Shown here one piece after another: positions 665 through 54,174 of a stretch of 64,000 nt of DNA. Made by a program: the position numbers and the translations under genes. How positions within the stretch are numbered: position 1 is the first letter of the stretch; every line of letters starts with the position of its first letter. A model generated the notes under the pieces. It was not told the DNA's origin. It made no database searches and saw only the letters and a list, made by a program, of their open reading frames with translations. Source of the DNA: Escherichia coli (lineage in GTDB: Bacteria > Pseudomonadota > Gammaproteobacteria > Enterobacterales > Enterobacteriaceae); assembly GCF_003790525.1 (NCBI RefSeq), contig NZ_CP033635.1, one strand, 5' to 3'.

Positions 665-2221
665 ATGCTGGTGAGAACACGACATCTGGTCGGCCTTATT
701 TCGGGAGTACTGATTCTTTCAGTATTGCTGCCTGTCGGCTTAAGCATCTGGCTGGCCCATCAGCAGGTAGAAACATCATTTATTGAAGAGCTGAATACGT
801 ATTCCTCCCGCGTCGCTATTCGGGCCAATAAGGTGGCGACACAAGGGAAAGATGCGCTGCAAGAGCTGGAAAGATGGCAAGGCGCTGCCTGTAGCGAAGC
901 CCATCTCATGGAAATGCGTCGGGTATCTTACAGTTATCGCTATATTCAGGAAGTGGTTTATATCGATAACAACGTTCCCCAGTGTTCGTCTCTGGAGCAT
1001 GAAAGCCCGCCCGATACCTTCCCCGAGCCAGGTAAAATTTCGAAAGATGGTTATCGTGTCTGGTTAACATCGCATAACGATTTAGGCATTATCCGTTACA
1101 TGGTCGCCATGGGAACGGCACATTATGTCGTCATGATCGACCCCGCTTCCTTTATTGATGTCATTCCCTATAGCTCATGGCAAATTGATGCCGCCATTAT
1201 TGGCAATGCCCATAACGTTGTGATAACCAGCAGTGATGAAATTGCTCAGGGAATTATTACCAGACTACAAAAAACACCCGGTGAGCATATCGAAAATAAT
1301 GGAATCATTTACGATATCCTGCCCTTACCGGAGATGAATATTTCGATCATCACCTGGGCTTCAACGAAAATGTTGCAGAAAGGCTGGCATCGGCAAGTCT
1401 TTATTTGGTTACCGTTCGGGTTGGTGATTGGCCTGCTGGCAGCGATGTTTGTGCTGCGTATTTTGCGCCGTATCCAGTCACCGCATCATCGGCTGCAGGA
1501 TGCTATCGAAAATCGTGATATTTGCGTGCACTATCAGCCGATTGTCTCCTTAGCCAATGGCAAAATTGTCGGTGCTGAGGCACTGGCGCGCTGGCCGCAG
1601 ACAGACGGTAGTTGGTTGTCACCAGATAGTTTTATTCCGCTGGCACAGCAAACGGGGCTTTCTGAGCCGTTGACGCTACTGATTATAAAAAGTGTCTTTG
1701 AAGATATGGGCGACTGGCTGCGTCAGCATCCGCAGCAGCATATTTCGATCAATCTTGAATCCACCGTGCTCACCTCGGAAAAAATCCCGCAATTGCTGCG
1801 TGAAATGATCAATCACTATCAGGTTAATCCCAGACAGATCGCGCTTGAACTCACTGAACGCGAGTTTGCCGATCCGAAAACCAGCGCCCCGATAATTTCT
1901 CGCTACCGGGAGGCGGGCCATGAAATTTATCTCGATGATTTTGGTACGGGGTATTCAAGTTTAAGCTATTTACAGGATCTGGATGTCGACATTCTGAAGA
2001 TCGATAAATCTTTCGTTGATGCGCTGGAATATAAAAATGTCACGCCACATATCATCGAAATGGCAAAAACACTGAAACTGAAAATGGTAGCGGAGGGAAT
2101 CGAAACCAGTAAACAAGAAGAGTGGCTACGTCAGCATAGCGTGCACTACGGCCAGGGCTGGCTCTACAGCAAGGCATTACCGAAAGAGGATTTCTTACGC
2201 TGGGCCGAGCAACATTTGTGA
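665..2221 (+). CDS. pdeB: c-di-GMP phosphodiesterase PdeB (YlaB), membrane sensor plus EAL domain
   Basis: 518 aa ORF; N-terminal TM segment, second TM ~aa 240, C-terminal EAL-type domain (ELTERE, DDFGTGYSSL, KIDKSF motifs). Confidence 0.9.
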   Translation: MLVRTRHLVGLISGVLILSVLLPVGLSIWLAHQQVETSFIEELNTYSSRVAIRANKVATQGKDALQELERWQGAACSEAHLMEMRRVSYSYRYIQEVVYIDNNVPQCSSLEHESPPDTFPEPGKISKDGYRVWLTSHNDLGIIRYMVAMGTAHYVVMIDPASFIDVIPYSSWQIDAAIIGNAHNVVITSSDEIAQGIITRLQKTPGEHIENNGIIYDILPLPEMNISIITWASTKMLQKGWHRQVFIWLPFGLVIGLLAAMFVLRILRRIQSPHHRLQDAIENRDICVHYQPIVSLANGKIVGAEALARWPQTDGSWLSPDSFIPLAQQTGLSEPLTLLIIKSVFEDMGDWLRQHPQQHISINLESTVLTSEKIPQLLREMINHYQVNPRQIALELTEREFADPKTSAPIISRYREAGHEIYLDDFGTGYSSLSYLQDLDVDILKIDKSFVDALEYKNVTPHIIEMAKTLKLKMVAEGIETSKQEEWLRQHSVHYGQGWLYSKALPKEDFLRWAEQHL

Positions 2222-2261
2222 ATTTTAGGGCTGACGGCACGCCGCACAGCCCGTCCGCTAC

Positions 2262-2615
2262 CTACTCGTCGATGATTGATTCGAATCCACCATAGATCAT
2301 TCGCTTGCCGTCAAACGGCATGGACTCGCCGAACTCTTTCATCCGTGGGTCCGACATCATCTTTTGATTAGCAGCGTCGCGGACCTCTTTTGAAGGGTAT
2401 TCAATCCAGCTAAAGACAACCTCTTCATTCTCTTCAGCTTTTACCGCCATACGAAAATCGGTCACTTTGCCATCCGGTACATCGCTGGCCCAGCATTCGA
2501 CAATACGAAGCGCGCCAAACTCTTTAAACAATGGCGCGGCCTTAGCGGCCATTTCCCGATAGGCATCCTTTTTATCGGCAGGAACGGCAACAACAAAACC
2601 ATCAACATACTTCAT
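2262..2615 (-). CDS. ybaA: DUF1428 family protein YbaA
   Basis: 117 aa ORF, size and synteny match. Confidence 0.8.
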   Translation of the reverse strand: MKYVDGFVVAVPADKKDAYREMAAKAAPLFKEFGALRIVECWASDVPDGKVTDFRMAVKAEENEEVVFSWIEYPSKEVRDAANQKMMSDPRMKEFGESMPFDGKRMIYGGFESIIDE

Positions 2616-2915
2616 CAGACATACCTCCGAAGCGTACTGCGCAGCCAGACAATTCTTGCGACGTCAGTTGTGGTTAAAGTTTAGCCATGTTGGGATTTTT
2701 TGACGAAACGGTGGGAGGCAGAAATGGGTGGGGGCCCTGCCAGCTACATCCCGGCACACGCGTCATCTGCCTTGGCTGCTTCCTTCCGGACCTGACCTGG
2801 TAAACAGAGTAGCGTTGCGGGAGAACCAACAGAGCCCCCATTGAGAGCGTTGAGAACCAACGCGCAGGCGCATTATCACTGCTGCCCCAGCTAATTGCAA
2901 CCCATTGCGTGCCGG

Positions 2916-3305
2916 ATGCTGGTTTCTTGCGCAATGCGACTTCACTCGGGCGTTTTTCCAGATTATGCTGAAAAATTACCTCAGGAAGAAAAGATGGAAA
3001 AAGAAGATTCATTTCCCCAACGCGTCTGGCAAATCGTCGCCGCTATTCCCGAAGGCTATGTCACCACTTACGGTGATGTGGCGAAACTGGCAGGATCGCC
3101 CCGCGCCGCGCGCCAGGTGGGCGGTGTGTTAAAGCGTCTCCCTGAAGGCAGCACCTTGCCCTGGCACCGGGTGGTTAATCGCCACGGCACAATTTCGCTA
3201 ACCGGACCGGATTTACAGCGTCAACGACAGGCATTACTGGCAGAAGGTGTGATGGTATCGGGAAGCGGGCAAATCGACTTGCAGCGTTATCGCTGGAACT
3301 ACTAA
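2916..3305 (+). CDS. atl: alkyltransferase-like protein Atl (YbaZ)
   Basis: ORF 2895..3305; internal Met gives ~129 aa; MGMT-like C-terminal fold without the active-site Cys motif; synteny. Confidence 0.85.
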   Translation: MLVSCAMRLHSGVFPDYAEKLPQEEKMEKEDSFPQRVWQIVAAIPEGYVTTYGDVAKLAGSPRAARQVGGVLKRLPEGSTLPWHRVVNRHGTISLTGPDLQRQRQALLAEGVMVSGSGQIDLQRYRWNY

Positions 3306-48766: not shown

Positions 48767-49975
48767 TCAGGCTGTCGCCTGAATCATTTCGGTGGGTTCC
48801 TGCTTCAACGGGCGGCCTGACTGCACCATCCCTCCACAGGCAAGAACGGCGTGCCCCGCCGCTAAAATGTTACGAGCGCCATTTACATCGGCGTTCGCTG
48901 TATATCCACATACCTGGCATCTGAATTGACTTTGTGACAGGCGATTTTCTTTCGCTGTATGACCACAGCACGTGCAACGCTGGCTTGTGTACGCTGGCGG
49001 AACAGCAAGCACCTGACCGCCACGCCAGAGCTGCTTGTACTCAAGCTGGCGGCGCATTTCATACCAGCCCTGATCCAGTACCGAACGGTTTAAACCTGAT
49101 TTTGCCCGGACATTGCGTCCCGGCTGGCTGACCGTACCCGCTGCTGACTTTGACATGTTGCTGACCTTCAAATCCTCAATGACTATCATTGCGTGGTTTT
49201 TGCTGACGGTCGTTGTGACTTTGTGAAGGTAGTCCCTGCGGATATTTGCGATACGGGAATGCAGTCGCTGTATTTTGCGTTTCTGCTTCTGCCAGTTATT
49301 GCTGAATTCGACCTTGCGGCTTAACTGTCGCTGAAGTCTCGCCAGCGTCTTCTGGTTTTTCTGAAAACTGTTTACAGGCTCAAAGACTGTGCCATCTGAC
49401 AGCGTGGCGAGTTTAGCCACGCCAGCATCCAGCCCGACCATTGATGCTGAAGGGTGAACCGGAGTGGATACTTCACTTTCTGTCTGAATACTGATGTACC
49501 ACTTACCGCAGGACTGGCTGACAGTGACATTTTTCACAACACCCGTGACCTGGCGGCTGTTCCGGTAGCGCATCCAGCCCAGTTTCGGCAGAAAAATACG
49601 GCTGTTTTCCTGATCGAGCTTAACGCCCTGCGGGTAGCGGAATGCATCATTCTGTCCCCGCTTTTTGAATCGGGGAAAAGCAGCCCGCTTCTGGAAGAAG
49701 TTTTTGTAAGCCCGCTCAAGGTCTTTCAGTGACTGTTGCAATGGCTGTGAGGGCGAATCTTTAAGCCATTGCGTTCCAGTGGCGTTTTTCCACTCAACCA
49801 GCCAGGAAGCCATTTTCCCGTAAGGGATGTATTTATTACCGGCCTCATGATTCTCATTCTGAAGCGCCAGAGCACGATTGAAAACGAAACGACATGCGCC
49901 TGCGAAGCGCCTCATTTCATGCTCCTGTTGACCACCGGGTCTTAACTGGAATTTAAATGCCTGTAGTCGTTTCAC
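48767..49975 (-). CDS. tnpB: IS605-family TnpB (OrfB; RuvC-like RNA-guided endonuclease family)
   Basis: 402 aa uninterrupted; N-terminal [13 protein letters not shown]...RFVFN; RuvC-I LDAGV, RuvC-II IEDL, zinc finger CTCCGH...CQVCG, Ruv[12 protein letters not shown]. Confidence 0.85.
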
Positions 49976-49997
49976 AGGTCAAATTATATTTTGGTCT

Positions 49998-50470
49998 GTG
50001 AAAAAAGAAACCGATATCCGGCGTGGAAGGCATTGTGTTTTCCTGATGCATGTTCACCTGGTCTTTGTCCCAAATACCGACGCCAGATTTTTGACCATGA
50101 CGCGACAGAAAAACTACGCACTTACTTTTCAAATGTATGTGCTGATTTTGAAGCTGAACGGGTTGAAATGGATGGCGAACCAGATCACGTCCATTTGTTA
50201 ATTAACTATCCTCCCAAACTGGCGATATCCAGTCTGGTAAACAGCCTCAAAGGTGTATCGGGTAGGTGACTGCGACGAGATCGACCAGATATTGCAGTCA
50301 GGTATTACTACAAAGGCGTTTTGTGGAGTCCTGGCTATTTTGCCAGTAGCTGCGGAGGTGCGCCAATATCCGTCATCCGCCAATACATTGAACAACAGCA
50401 AACACCTGGTCAGGTGGAAAACCGCGCCTTATATCCCCGCCCTGAAGGACGGGGTTTTACGGCGCACCGG
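49998..50470 (+). pseudogene. tnpA: IS200-type Y1 (HUH) transposase TnpA, disrupted by multiple frameshifts
   Basis: TnpA-like segments spread over three frames: HVHLVFVP / PKYRRQIF...HVHLLINYPPKLAISSLVNSLKG / WSPGYFASSCGGAPISVIRQYIEQQ. Confidence 0.7.
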
Positions 50471-50472
50471 AT

Positions 50473-50880
50473 AAAGAAACCGTCAAAATCACTCAGCAAA
50501 ACAGGCTGAATGCAAAATCCAGCAGTGGGGTTTACCTTCTGCCTGGAGCGAAAACACCGGCAAGACTGGAAAGCCAGATCGGTACTTTACGTATGTCGCT
50601 AGTGAATATTACGCATGATACAGATGGCACCACCCTGACGCTACGTATTCAGGGCGAGTCGAATGACCCCTTGCCCGCATTCAGCGGAACTGTTGAATAT
50701 GGGCAAATTCAGGGAACAATAGACAACTTTCAGGAAATCAATTTGCAGAATCAATTGATTAATGCCCCTGCCAGCGTCCTCGTCCCCAGCGATGTTGATA
50801 TTCCGTTACAGTTAAAGGGGATTTCTGTAGAACAGTTAGACTTTGTACGTATCCACGACATTCAACCTGTTATGCAGTAA
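50473..50880 (+). pseudogene. yajI: yajI lipoprotein gene, 3' fragment downstream of the IS insertion
   Basis: In-frame ETVKITQQNRLNAKSS...DIQPVMQ continues the YajI sequence; ORF-track Met at 50593 is internal. Confidence 0.75.
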
Positions 50881-51178: not shown

Positions 51179-52063
51179 ATGAAAAAAACATTACTGGCAG
51201 CCGGTGCGGTACTGGCGCTCTCTTCGTCTTTTACTGTCAACGCAGCTGAAAACGACAAACCGCAGTATCTTTCCGACTGGTGGCACCAGAGCGTTAACGT
51301 TGTCGGAAGCTATCACACCCGTTTCGGACCGCAGATCCGCAACGATACCTACCTTGAGTACGAAGCATTCGCTAAAAAAGACTGGTTCGACTTCTATGGT
51401 TATGCGGATGCGCCGGTATTCTTCGGCGGTAACTCCGATGCAAAAGGTATCTGGAACCACGGTTCTCCGCTGTTTATGGAAATCGAACCGCGTTTCTCCA
51501 TCGACAAACTGACCAATACTGACCTTAGCTTCGGTCCGTTCAAAGAGTGGTACTTCGCGAACAACTACATTTACGACATGGGTCGTAATAAAGATGGTCG
51601 CCAGAGCACCTGGTACATGGGTCTGGGTACCGACATCGATACTGGTCTGCCGATGAGCCTGTCCATGAACGTCTATGCGAAATACCAGTGGCAGAACTAT
51701 GGCGCAGCGAACGAAAACGAGTGGGACGGTTACCGTTTCAAAATTAAATACTTTGTGCCGATTACCGATCTGTGGGGCGGTCAGCTGAGCTACATCGGCT
51801 TCACCAACTTCGACTGGGGTTCCGATTTAGGGGATGACAGCGGTAACGCAATCAACGGTATTAAGACCCGTACTAATAACTCTATCGCTTCCAGCCATAT
51901 TCTGGCTCTGAACTACGATCATTGGCACTACTCTGTCGTAGCTCGTTACTGGCACGACGGTGGTCAGTGGAACGACGATGCAGAACTGAACTTCGGCAAC
52001 GGCAACTTCAACGTTCGCTCTACCGGCTGGGGTGGTTACCTGGTAGTAGGTTACAACTTCTAA
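51179..52063 (+). CDS. tsx: nucleoside-specific outer membrane channel Tsx
   Basis: ORF 51131..52063; start [22 protein letters not shown] (signal peptide) gives 294 aa; C-terminal beta-barrel ending in F. Confidence 0.95.
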
Positions 52064-52071
52064 TTGTGAGA

Positions 52072-52099
52072 ATGCCGGATTTCATATCCGGCATTTTTT
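52072..52099. terminator. rho-independent terminator downstream of tsx (shared with convergent yajD)
   Basis: GCCGGAT-TTCAT-ATCCGGC followed by TTTTTTA. Confidence 0.85.
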
Positions 52100-52100
52100 A

Positions 52101-52448
52101 TCACTTCTTCTTGTTCATCATCGCTTTCAGGTCAGCGAATGGGTTGTACTTCGCTTCACCGACATCTTTCTGCGCATCTTCCCCTGCGATAACGGTCGTA
52201 CCATACTGATCCGCTTCGGTATATTTCGAATGCTCATGATCGTGGCAATAGAGACAAAGCAATTCCCAGTTACTGCCATCTTCCGGGTTATTGGTATGGT
52301 CGTGATCAATGTGGTGAACGGTAAGTTCACGCAGGTTGGAATAAACAAACTCACGGGAACAGCGACCGCAGACCCACGGATAGATTTTTAATGCTTTTTC
52401 GCGATAGCCGCTTTCTAACCGCGCATAGTTTTTTGGGATGATAGCCAT
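52101..52448 (-). CDS. yajD: HNH nuclease family protein YajD
   Basis: 115 aa; HNH/zinc motif CxxC...HH...C..CH. Confidence 0.9.
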   Translation of the reverse strand: MAIIPKNYARLESGYREKALKIYPWVCGRCSREFVYSNLRELTVHHIDHDHTNNPEDGSNWELLCLYCHDHEHSKYTEADQYGTTVIAGEDAQKDVGEAKYNPFADLKAMMNKKK

Positions 52449-52535
52449 GAAAAGTTACCTGGATGAAATGTAGGGTTACGCGCAGTTTCCCAAGATGCGG
52501 GGATTTTCGCAATCCTGAGTCAAGAAATTCTCACA

Positions 52536-52817
52536 TTACCAGTGACGGCGAGGTTCCATCAGCTGATGAAGAATGCGCGCAATGAGAATGTCATCGACTC
52601 TTATAACGTAATAAACAGTGTGAAACCTAAATGCGATCTTCTTTACCTCTGGAATCGCATCATAGTCTTGCCCTATCTCGGGCATTTGAGAGAGTGTATC
52701 CAGAAAAATGCCGAGAGAGTCGGTATAGCGATCCGCCTGCTCCTCACCAAACTTTCCCAGCGTGTAGTCATAGATCCCTCTGAAATCTTCAACAGCTTTT
52801 CCGCTAAGCTTATACAC
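52536..52817 (-). CDS. ParE/RelE-superfamily toxin of a type II toxin-antitoxin pair
   Basis: ORF 52536..52850; likely GTG start whose GTGTATAA overlaps the antitoxin stop, giving ~93 aa; ParE-like core. Confidence 0.7.
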   Translation of the reverse strand: MYKLSGKAVEDFRGIYDYTLGKFGEEQADRYTDSLGIFLDTLSQMPEIGQDYDAIPEVKKIAFRFHTVYYVIRVDDILIARILHQLMEPRRHW

Positions 52818-53052
52818 GATGTTTTTGCTTCCTTTCTGCTGCGATATCACGAAGCGTCATCGAACTTTCACCGCTCTCAAGACCTTCAATAACAGCATTT
52901 CTGACAGCTTCATCCCTGGATTCTTGTTGTTCCAATAGACGAAGCGCTGAACGCATTACTTCACTGGCCGAGCCATAACGACCAGACTGGACCATCCGTG
53001 TAATAAAACTATCTAATTGTTCGCCAACGCTTACTGAGGTAATTTTGCGCAT
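52810..53052 (-). CDS. ParD-family (RHH/CopG-like) antitoxin
   Basis: 80 aa; ...SGRYGSASEVMRSALRLLEQQE...GLESGES... typical of ParD/COG3609 antitoxins; directly upstream of and overlapping the toxin. Confidence 0.75.
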   Translation of the reverse strand: MRKITSVSVGEQLDSFITRMVQSGRYGSASEVMRSALRLLEQQESRDEAVRNAVIEGLESGESSMTLRDIAAERKQKHRV

Positions 53053-53065
53053 AAGCGATCTCCAT

Positions 53066-53082
53066 GTATTAACTATTAATAC
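53066..53082. promoter_or_regulatory. palindromic operator candidate upstream of ParD antitoxin gene
   Basis: GTATTAA-CTA-TTAATAC perfect 7-bp-arm inverted repeat 15-30 nt upstream of the parD-like start, overlapping a -10-like TATTAAT. Confidence 0.5.
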
Positions 53083-53142
53083 AAAGTATATGTCAGAACT
53101 CTTTCTACAACCAAACCGTATTCAGTTGCATGTGAAACAGGC

Positions 53143-53180
53143 AAAAAAAACCGCAGCGCAAATACGCCACGGTTTTTTTA
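53143..53180 (-). terminator. terminator downstream of secF
   Basis: On minus strand ACCGTGGCG...CGCTGCGGT imperfect hairpin followed by T8. Confidence 0.6.
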
Positions 53181-53202
53181 ACAGAACGGATTTAAAACAC
53201 CC

Positions 53203-54174
53203 TTAAGGCAGAATTGACGGCTGATCCGCCCCTTCTTTTTCCACTTTCTGCTGCAGCATGTGTTCGCGCTTCATACCCAGTTTCAGAGCCAGCGCCGATG
53301 CTACGTAGATGGAAGATGCAGTACCGATGGAAACACCGATAAGCATGGTCAGCGAGAAGCCTTCCAGTACCGGACCACCGAAGAGGTACAGCATCAGGAT
53401 AACCATCAAGGTAGTACCGGATGTGATCAAGGTACGGTGCAGCGTCTGGGTCAAGGACACGTTAAAGATTTCGTAAGGCGTACCGCGACGGATCTTGCGG
53501 AAGTTTTCACGAATACGGTCCGATACCACGATACTGTCGTTAAGCGAGTAACCGATAACTGACATCAACGATGCCACAATGGTCAGGTCAATCTCGATAT
53601 GGAATAACGACAAAATACCCAGCGTAATGATAACGTCGTGCGCCAGCGCAATAACAACCCCTGCCGCCAGTCGCCACTCAAAGCGGAAACCTACGTACAC
53701 GAGGATAGACAGCAGCGCCGCCATCAACGCCATCGCACCGGTTTGCGCAAGGTCTGCCCCCACGCTCGGCCCGACGAACTCAATACGCTTCACTGCCGCA
53801 TTCTGATTGGTGGATTCGTTAATCACCTTCAGAACCTGGCTGCCCAGCACCTGACCGCCGGTTTCGCCTTCAGCAGGCGGCATACGGACCATGATGTCGT
53901 GGCTGCTACCAAAGTTTTGCAGCATCGGCTCTTCAAAACCGGCTTTTTGCAATGCATCACGCATTACGTCAATTTCAGCCGGTTTTTCGAGCGTAATTTC
54001 AATAACCGTACCACCGGTGAAATCCAGCCCCCAGTTAAAGCCGCGCACGCCCATAATAACGATAGCGGCGATTAACAGCAGACCAGAGATGCCGAAAGCC
54101 CAGTAGTCCCAGCGCATAAAGTCATAGACTTTACGGCCGTGGTTTAGTTGTTCAACAGTATATTCCTGTGCCAC
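53203..54174 (-). CDS. secF: protein translocase subunit SecF
   Basis: ORF 53203..54219; GTG start at ..[18 protein letters not shown] gives 323 aa. Confidence 0.95.

Follow-up and report, generated by a model that had tools for sequence, protein, structure and literature searches.

Background

In the founding ParDE system, that of RK2, the ParE toxin targets gyrase (Jiang et al. 2002, as cited in later work), while the RK2 ParD antitoxin belongs to Pfam family PF09386 and is unrelated in sequence to the antitoxins of family PF03693 (PMC7848731). ParE2 of Vibrio cholerae poisons gyrase through its alpha-hairpin, and the C-terminal half of its ParD wraps the toxin; Trp25 of this toxin was found to be the key residue for gyrase-directed toxicity, its replacement by Phe reduced toxicity, and PrpT of Pseudoalteromonas rubra likewise lacks the Trp (bioRxiv 10.1101/2025.07.24.666505). 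The antitoxin of the latter system, PrpA, binds the motif TTTG(T/A)AAT within its own promoter (PMC7848731), and the two studies of the pair (PMC7848731, PMC9731233) report no target for PrpT, which is the closest solved relative of the toxin described below. For a pair of small genes between secF and yajD of Escherichia coli, we analyzed its gene layout, its distribution, its regulatory sequences, the family and predicted fold of its products, and its relatives on plasmids.

Gene layout at the secF-yajD junction

The window, i.e., the whole 64-kb stretch of E. coli DNA that was analyzed, carries on its minus strand the gene order secF, parD, parE, yajD (Table 1), and the region is 100% identical to the chromosome of E. 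coli SMS-3-5 (NC_010498.1). A preliminary description, made from the letters of the sequence, had proposed an 80-aa ParD-like ribbon-helix-helix antitoxin followed by a toxin of ~93-104 aa between yajD and secF, with a GTG start of the toxin overlapping the antitoxin stop. Both reading frames were recovered where it had placed them, both flanking genes were confirmed by the open reading frames and by RefSeq, and the GTG in GTGTATAA indeed gives an overlap of 8 nt. RefSeq names the two products "ParD family antitoxin" (WP_001226938.1) and "RelE/ParE family toxin" (WP_000277485.1).

The start of parD is preceded by a Shine-Dalgarno sequence (GGAG at 53063..53060, then 7 nt, then the ATG). For the toxin, the mechanical list of open reading frames begins at the first in-frame GTG (52850), which gives a product of 104 aa (52536..52850), while the second in-frame GTG (52817), inside GTGTATAA, yields 93 aa. 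The 93-aa form is favoured because all 25 aligned homologues start with MYKL or MYRL at the position of the GTG at 52817 (an upstream extension is present in 0 of the 25), because RefSeq gives the gene a length of 282 nt, and because AGGAAG sits 10 nt 5' of this GTG. The 104-aa start was dropped, since no homologue reaches it and no Shine-Dalgarno sequence precedes that GTG. The antitoxin-first layout and the 8-nt overlap recur in the plasmid homologues, and an overlap of this kind implies translational coupling of the two genes.

Table 1 Positions in the window of the features discussed in the text
Feature	Position	Strand	Details and basis
TnpB/InsQ RNA-guided endonuclease gene, intact	ends ~49975		RefSeq
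tnpA pseudogene, frameshifted	~49983..50407		RefSeq
DUF3251 pseudogene, partial	~50470..50880		RefSeq
yajD	52101..52448	-	flanking gene; HNH-nuclease gene
Accessory segment	52515..53202	.	688 bp vs 62 bp in K-12; terminator, promoter/operator, parD, parE
parE toxin gene	52536..52817	-	93 aa, GTG start; ORF, PF05016, RefSeq WP_000277485.1
parE start / parD stop overlap GTGTATAA	52810..52817	-	8 nt; read from the sequence
parD antitoxin gene	52810..53052	-	80 aa, ATG start; ORF, TIGR02606, PF03693, RefSeq WP_001226938.1
Candidate ParD operator TTGTATTAA-TAG-TTAATACA	53065..53084	-	perfect 8-bp arms 53065-53072 and 53076-53083
Putative parDE promoter	53085..53114	-	TTGGTT (53114..53109), 18-nt spacer, TATACT (53090..53085)
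Intrinsic terminator, hairpin and U-tract	53144..53179	-	after secF; arms 53144-53158 and 53165-53179
secF	53203..54174	-	flanking gene

Elsewhere in the window, upstream of tsx, the lipoprotein gene yajI (DUF3251) is truncated by an IS200/IS605-family element (window ~48767..50880; Table 1). Several metagenome contigs encoding this ParE show the same truncated-yajI arrangement; on others with an identical parE, yajI is intact and nrdR comes after it, as in O157 genomes.

Distribution in E. coli and comparison with K-12

The suggestion of the preliminary description that K-12 lacks the pair was borne out, as the gap between secF and yajD in MG1655 is 128 bp long and has no gene within it, and the MG1655 record holds no near-identical copy of the pair elsewhere. 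In a pairwise alignment, the 66 bp adjoining yajD are common to K-12 and to the SMS-3-5-type locus, while the 62 bp of K-12, which include its own secF terminator, are swapped for 688 unrelated bp that reach up to the secF stop codon. No flanking direct repeats or target-site duplication were found at the borders of the segment, and 62 bp appear to have been exchanged for the 688 bp.

A survey of the junction found the whole segment in 424 of 5426 complete E. coli genomes (about 8%), always on the chromosome; the yajD-proximal flank was matched in 5403 of the 5426. The accessory nature that had been proposed for the pair thus holds, while "strain-specific" does not, since the pair follows lineages and is present in all listed O157:H7 genomes as well as in SMS-3-5-like strains. 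Two allele groups were distinguished, one of 78 genomes with at least 99% identity to SMS-3-5 and one of 348 genomes at 95-99%, dominated by O157:H7, and neither reading frame is disrupted in 424 of the 426 carrier genomes. In O157:H7 Sakai the genes are annotated as ECs_0461 ('transcriptional regulator') and ECs_0462 ('plasmid stabilization system protein').

A comparison of SMS-3-5 with Sakai shows 10 differences in the 754 positions of the spacer, 16 in the 972 of secF, and 1 in the 348 of yajD. Within the spacer, parD has three synonymous and no non-synonymous differences, while parE has one synonymous and two non-synonymous ones (E25D and I37T). As judged from these alleles, the differences fit a module that has long been resident at the site and of which the antitoxin, at least, is under purifying selection.

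One carrier, E. coli E105 (NZ_CP071375.1), has an IS3-family element exactly between parD and parE (898..2728 of the extracted locus), by which parD is truncated to 76 aa and parE loses both its promoter and its translational coupling. Toxin and antitoxin have here been uncoupled by a natural event, and the cell tolerates it.

Terminator, promoter, and candidate operator

The RNA of the hairpin behind secF folds with -25.4 kcal/mol (z = -5.2), and none of 200 shuffled sequences was as stable; this terminator insulates parDE from secDF transcription. A simple scanner for promoters and terminators, run over 52050..53300, returned 0 sites. By inspection of the sequence, we infer a parDE promoter at 53085..53114 that is sub-consensus and too weak for a consensus scanner; at the position aligned with it, TTGACA-17-TATCAT is found in the plasmid homologues of Yersinia and Citrobacter.

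The candidate operator sits between the putative -10 box, which it follows directly, and the Shine-Dalgarno sequence of parD. Its palindrome occurs once in the 64-kb window, where 0 occurrences are expected by chance even with two mismatches, and it is found in identical form before parD on a ~5-kb Salmonella plasmid, the toxin of which is only 66% identical. The palindrome of Yersinia ruckeri (TGTGTTAA-TAG-TTAACACA) carries a mirrored change from A..T to G..C. In addition, the degenerate pattern TTGTRTTRATAGTTAAYACA was scanned in one genome per species, for a total of 100,044 species, and gave 31 matches. At ten of these a parD homologue (48-76% identical, tblastn) starts 9-23 nt past the palindrome, namely in Shimwellia, Pectobacterium, Cedecea, Yersinia, Serratia, Erwinia, Psychromonas, Halomonas, Marinobacter, and a gammaproteobacterial MAG. 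At an eleventh locus, in Rouxiella, the sequence ends right after the palindrome, and the upstream part is as in the parD-linked loci of Enterobacterales. The outer variable pair is symmetric (A..T or G..C) in every parD-linked palindrome and asymmetric combinations occur in unlinked matches only, and at an inner arm position (A or G) five of the parD-linked palindromes lack this symmetry. The half-site TTTGTATT also resembles the motif TTTG(T/A)AAT bound by PrpA. Because its changes across taxa are symmetric, we read the palindrome as probably the operator of ParD, placed where a bound protein could block transcription initiation.

The other 20 of the 31 matches are not linked to parD (tblastn) and were set aside; they come mostly from low-G+C genomes, and many apparently lie in coding sequence. 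The pattern recurs in 10 loci within what appears to be one conserved coding sequence of Flavobacteriia/Sphingobacteriia, with flanks such as ...TTTTTGTATTAATAGTTAATACAGTnCC..., and these matches were treated as unrelated coincidences in AT-rich genomes.

On the other side of the pair, we noted no terminator-like hairpin in the 87 nt that separate the stop of parE from the start of yajD (52449..52535), nor was one reported there by the scanner, so parDE transcripts may read through into yajD. In K-12, yajD is located directly downstream of the secF terminator.

Families and folds of the two products

The parD product matches TIGR02606 ('ParD family antitoxin', a model named after Caulobacter CC2985) with 95.7 bits (cutoff 46.2; E = 1.2e-27) and Pfam PF03693 with E = 1.9e-22. 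Its closest solved relative is V. cholerae ParD2 (7b22; E = 2.9e-19 over residues 1-69), followed by Caulobacter ParD1 (3kxe; E = 1.9e-13), and further solved relatives are M. tuberculosis ParD1 (8c24) and PrpA of P. rubra (7ycs). The two family models and the ParD2 match agree with the proposed ParD-type ribbon-helix-helix antitoxin, for which an N-terminal ribbon-helix-helix DNA-binding part and a C-terminal toxin-binding part would be expected.

The toxin, which the preliminary description had assigned to the ParE/RelE fold, matches Pfam PF05016 (ParE_toxin) with E = 7.9e-14 over model positions 1-88 of 89; no NCBIfam model matches it at E <= 0.01. A search of the PDB with the single sequence returned ParE-type chains only (7ycs, 8c24, 3kxe, and 7r5a; E = 8.1e-8 to 5.3e-4). 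A profile of 26 sequences found the same four at E = 8.5e-25 to 2.6e-18 and added ParE2 of O157 (5cw7, 5czf), ParE of Mesorhizobium (6x0a, 5ceg), and ParE1 of P. aeruginosa (6xrw), bringing the solved ParE-type chains to nine. RelE, YoeB, HigB, and YafQ chains were absent from these searches (E <= 1 for the single sequence, E <= 10 for the profile), and a direct comparison with E. coli K-12 RelE revealed no detectable similarity (hhalign probability 0.3%, BLASTP E = 0.6). The sequence relationship to RelE, YoeB, or HigB that would mark a RelE-type mRNA interferase was not found.

An AlphaFold2 model of the toxin, built on the alignment of its homologues, has a mean pLDDT of 90.5 and the element order beta-alpha-alpha-beta-beta-beta (E2-4, H6-23, H25-44, E58-63, E66-72, and E77-84, with a low-confidence tail). 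When this model was searched against the PDB with Foldseek, ranks 1-23 were all of ParE type, mostly with TMq 0.75-0.87 and with 0.66 as the lowest value (M. tuberculosis ParE2), while RelE, YoeB, and HigB structures appeared from rank 24 onward (TMq ~0.5-0.69, E = 2.6e-3 and weaker). The fold as predicted is of the ParE type, an alpha-hairpin on a sheet without the C-terminal catalytic helix of RelE, and as far as sequence and predicted fold tell, the toxin falls on the ParE side of the ParE/RelE superfamily.

Individual residues were also compared. The family alignment has 18 invariant positions, all of which are retained in the toxin, and its C-terminal motif R81-I-L-H-Q85-x-M87 is shared with the ParE1 toxins of Caulobacter and M. 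tuberculosis. In the loop between alpha1 and alpha2, where both of these have Trp, the toxin has Phe23, and the Trp of these two corresponds to Trp25 of V. cholerae ParE2 (bioRxiv 10.1101/2025.07.24.666505). This Phe is a caveat on the potency of the toxin and not on its family.

Origin and plasmid relatives

The segment has a G+C content of 43.5%, compared with 51% for the window. Outside E. coli, the nearest relatives share 56-66% identity and, among those found, are mostly plasmid-borne; relatives are present in 362 plasmid records from Salmonella, Yersinia, Serratia, Klebsiella, Citrobacter, and others, and several of them directly adjoin replication-initiator genes. The operator pattern was absent from the representative genomes of Escherichia species. 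As the closest relatives are mostly on plasmids, several of them beside rep genes, and the G+C content is low, a plasmid origin followed by chromosomal capture is probably the most economical reading. A phage origin was rejected, since a tblastn search of 50,697 phage records found no homologue.

On the Citrobacter freundii plasmid pF1917-3, a reverse-transcriptase family gene and an HTH regulator lie immediately downstream of the parDE homologue (2048..3274 of the extracted locus). This may be a retron-like or other reverse-transcriptase-based defence locus beside a toxin-antitoxin module.

Proposed mechanism and alternative readings

The pair has every computationally testable feature of the subgroup that combines ParE with a PF03693-type ParD, and it is almost certainly a ParD/ParE type II module. 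By analogy with the characterized systems, we consider it likely that the two genes form an autoregulated operon of this subgroup, probably derived from a plasmid, in which ParE poisons gyrase. Gyrase as the target, taken by itself, is a likely assignment held with less confidence.

The steps of this mechanism are modelled on RK2 ParE, V. cholerae ParE2, and the ParDE1 systems of M. tuberculosis and Caulobacter. A weak sigma-70 promoter would drive parD and parE as a single, translationally coupled message. Dimers of ParD, alone or together with ParE, would bind TGTATTAA-N3-TTAATACA just past the -10 box and so repress the operon, while the C-terminal half of ParD would wrap the alpha-hairpin of ParE and neutralize it. 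Should the degradation of ParD outpace its replacement, free ParE would be expected to bind gyrase on DNA and stabilize the cleavage complex, by which replication would be blocked. As a chromosomal element, the module is most likely a passenger, either selfish or neutral, and it may neutralize the related ParE toxins of plasmids as well. It counts against gyrase poisoning that ParE homologues are not uniformly strong poisons of gyrase, ParE1 of P. aeruginosa being described as non-toxic, that the Phe present in this toxin reduced toxicity when placed at Trp25 of V. cholerae ParE2, and that the two PrpT/PrpA studies name no target for PrpT. The sub-consensus promoter and the absence of an NCBIfam match for the toxin also weigh against the proposed operon.

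The first alternative is that the pair is a decaying or attenuated remnant, in which the genes are intact, the toxin is weak or non-toxic in its host, and the module has no measurable effect. A precedent for a non-toxic chromosomal ParE exists in ParE1 of P. aeruginosa, which is described as such in a preprint (bioRxiv 10.1101/2025.07.24.666505), and this reading would also accommodate Phe23, a change at the Trp25-equivalent position that lowers the toxicity of V. cholerae ParE2, the -35 box that is poor compared with those of the plasmid relatives, the tolerance of E105 for an IS3 element between the two genes, and the excess of non-synonymous over synonymous differences in parE (two to one). 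Against these stand the intact frames in nearly all carrier genomes, the retention of every family-invariant toxin residue, the restriction of parD to synonymous changes, and the perfect palindrome of the operator, and we regard a remnant as unlikely.

A second alternative retains the biochemistry of the proposed operon and adds a use to the host, either in phage defence by abortive infection or as a plasmid anti-addiction module. What speaks for such a co-option is that Salmonella plasmid modules have an identical operator and toxins that are 63-66% identical, that palindrome-linked ParD proteins 74-76% identical occur in representative genomes of five other Enterobacterales species, and that the module has persisted at one site with a divergence like that of its flanks (10/754 in the spacer vs 16/972 in secF). 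With an identical operator and related toxins and ParD proteins, cross-repression or cross-neutralization is conceivable. For a defensive role, on the other hand, no homologue was found in the phage records that were searched, no defence genes are adjacent (the neighbours are secDF, yajD, and tsx), and an assignment of the pair to a defence system was rejected, as no PADLOC model matched it. Host co-option is considered improbable, slightly more so than a remnant.

By far the least probable alternative is that the toxin does not poison gyrase but acts like RelE, as a ribosome-dependent mRNA endonuclease: although ParE and RelE share one superfamily fold, the RefSeq name is the generic one, and RelE, YoeB, and HigB do turn up weakly in the fold search, this reading is opposed by the negligible similarity to K-12 RelE, by the nine ParE-type and zero RelE-type PDB chains, by the 23 leading Foldseek ranks, and by a partner antitoxin of the PF03693 ParD type instead of the RelB or YefM type.

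Returning to the autoregulated ParD/ParE operon, a more speculative extension, to which we give little probability, is that the chromosomal ParD acts in trans on incoming plasmids, either by neutralizing their ParE or, in the manner of PrpA, by binding promoter or origin sites and thereby altering copy number. If so, strains of O157:H7 and of phylogroup F would handle some Enterobacterales plasmids differently from K-12-like strains.

Significance

The pair is already annotated in RefSeq, under correct names, and in O157:H7 Sakai, has for years been part of the O157:H7 reference genomes, and is an ordinary, catalogued accessory toxin-antitoxin module; therefore it is not a discovery. A 2020 review displays the TAfinder-predicted toxin-antitoxin systems of EDL933 in a figure in which those that have not been validated are asterisked. 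Our literature search found no work testing ECs_0461/ECs_0462 or WP_000277485, and nothing relevant on ParE in connection with yajD. The interest of the locus is modest and lies in a pair that is fixed in the O157:H7 lineage and yet has apparently no published experimental test, in a conserved palindrome that provides a ready-made operator prediction for a subgroup of PF03693 antitoxins, and in the secF-yajD spacer as a further case of a toxin-antitoxin cassette that replaces an intergenic terminator and leaves the core genes undisturbed.

Comparison with known systems

The PrpT/PrpA system of P. rubra plasmid pMBL6842 (PDB 7YCS; PMC7848731, PMC9731233) likewise combines a PF05016 toxin with a PF03693 antitoxin. 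PrpT matches the predicted toxin fold best (TMq 0.87) and also heads the single-sequence PDB search (E = 8.1e-8), with an identity of only ~28% to the E. coli toxin. The plasmid relatives of the E. coli pair adjoin rep genes, which is a further likeness to PrpT/PrpA. PrpA controls plasmid copy number through the iterons of the origin, whereas the E. coli pair lies on the chromosome, with no origin of a plasmid in its vicinity. A copy-number role of the PrpA type finds no counterpart at this locus, where neither a rep gene nor an iteron array was found and the palindrome is present once in 64 kb.

For V. cholerae ParD2/ParE2 (7B22, 7R5A), the antitoxin is the closest solved one and the toxin fold is similar to the predicted one (TMq 0.84), while the toxin sequence match is weaker (E = 5.3e-4) and its Trp25 is Phe in the E. 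coli toxin. This system is located in the superintegron and not in a spacer between core genes.

The ParDE1 systems of Caulobacter (3KXE) and M. tuberculosis (8C24) share the C-terminal V/I-L-H-Q-x-M motif with the E. coli pair at a toxin identity of ~31-32%, and their ParE1 toxins are matched by the toxin profile with E = 4.9e-22 and E = 8.5e-25, respectively. They come from other hosts and contexts and are experimentally characterized, while the E. coli pair is known from its sequence.

The RK2 system likewise has a PF05016 toxin and the same logic of an autoregulated operon of antitoxin and toxin. Since RK2 ParD belongs to PF09386, the E. coli pair is, strictly speaking, not an RK2-type ParD pair. 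Finally, the O157:H7 genomes that carry this pair have another ParE-family toxin in PaaR2-PaaA2-ParE2 of prophage CP-933P (5CW7), which is matched by the toxin described here with a profile E of 1.5e-5 and a TMq of 0.75 at an identity of ~19-20% and which, unlike the two-gene pair between secF and yajD, belongs to a prophage-borne system of three components, with PaaA2 as the antitoxin and a separate regulator.
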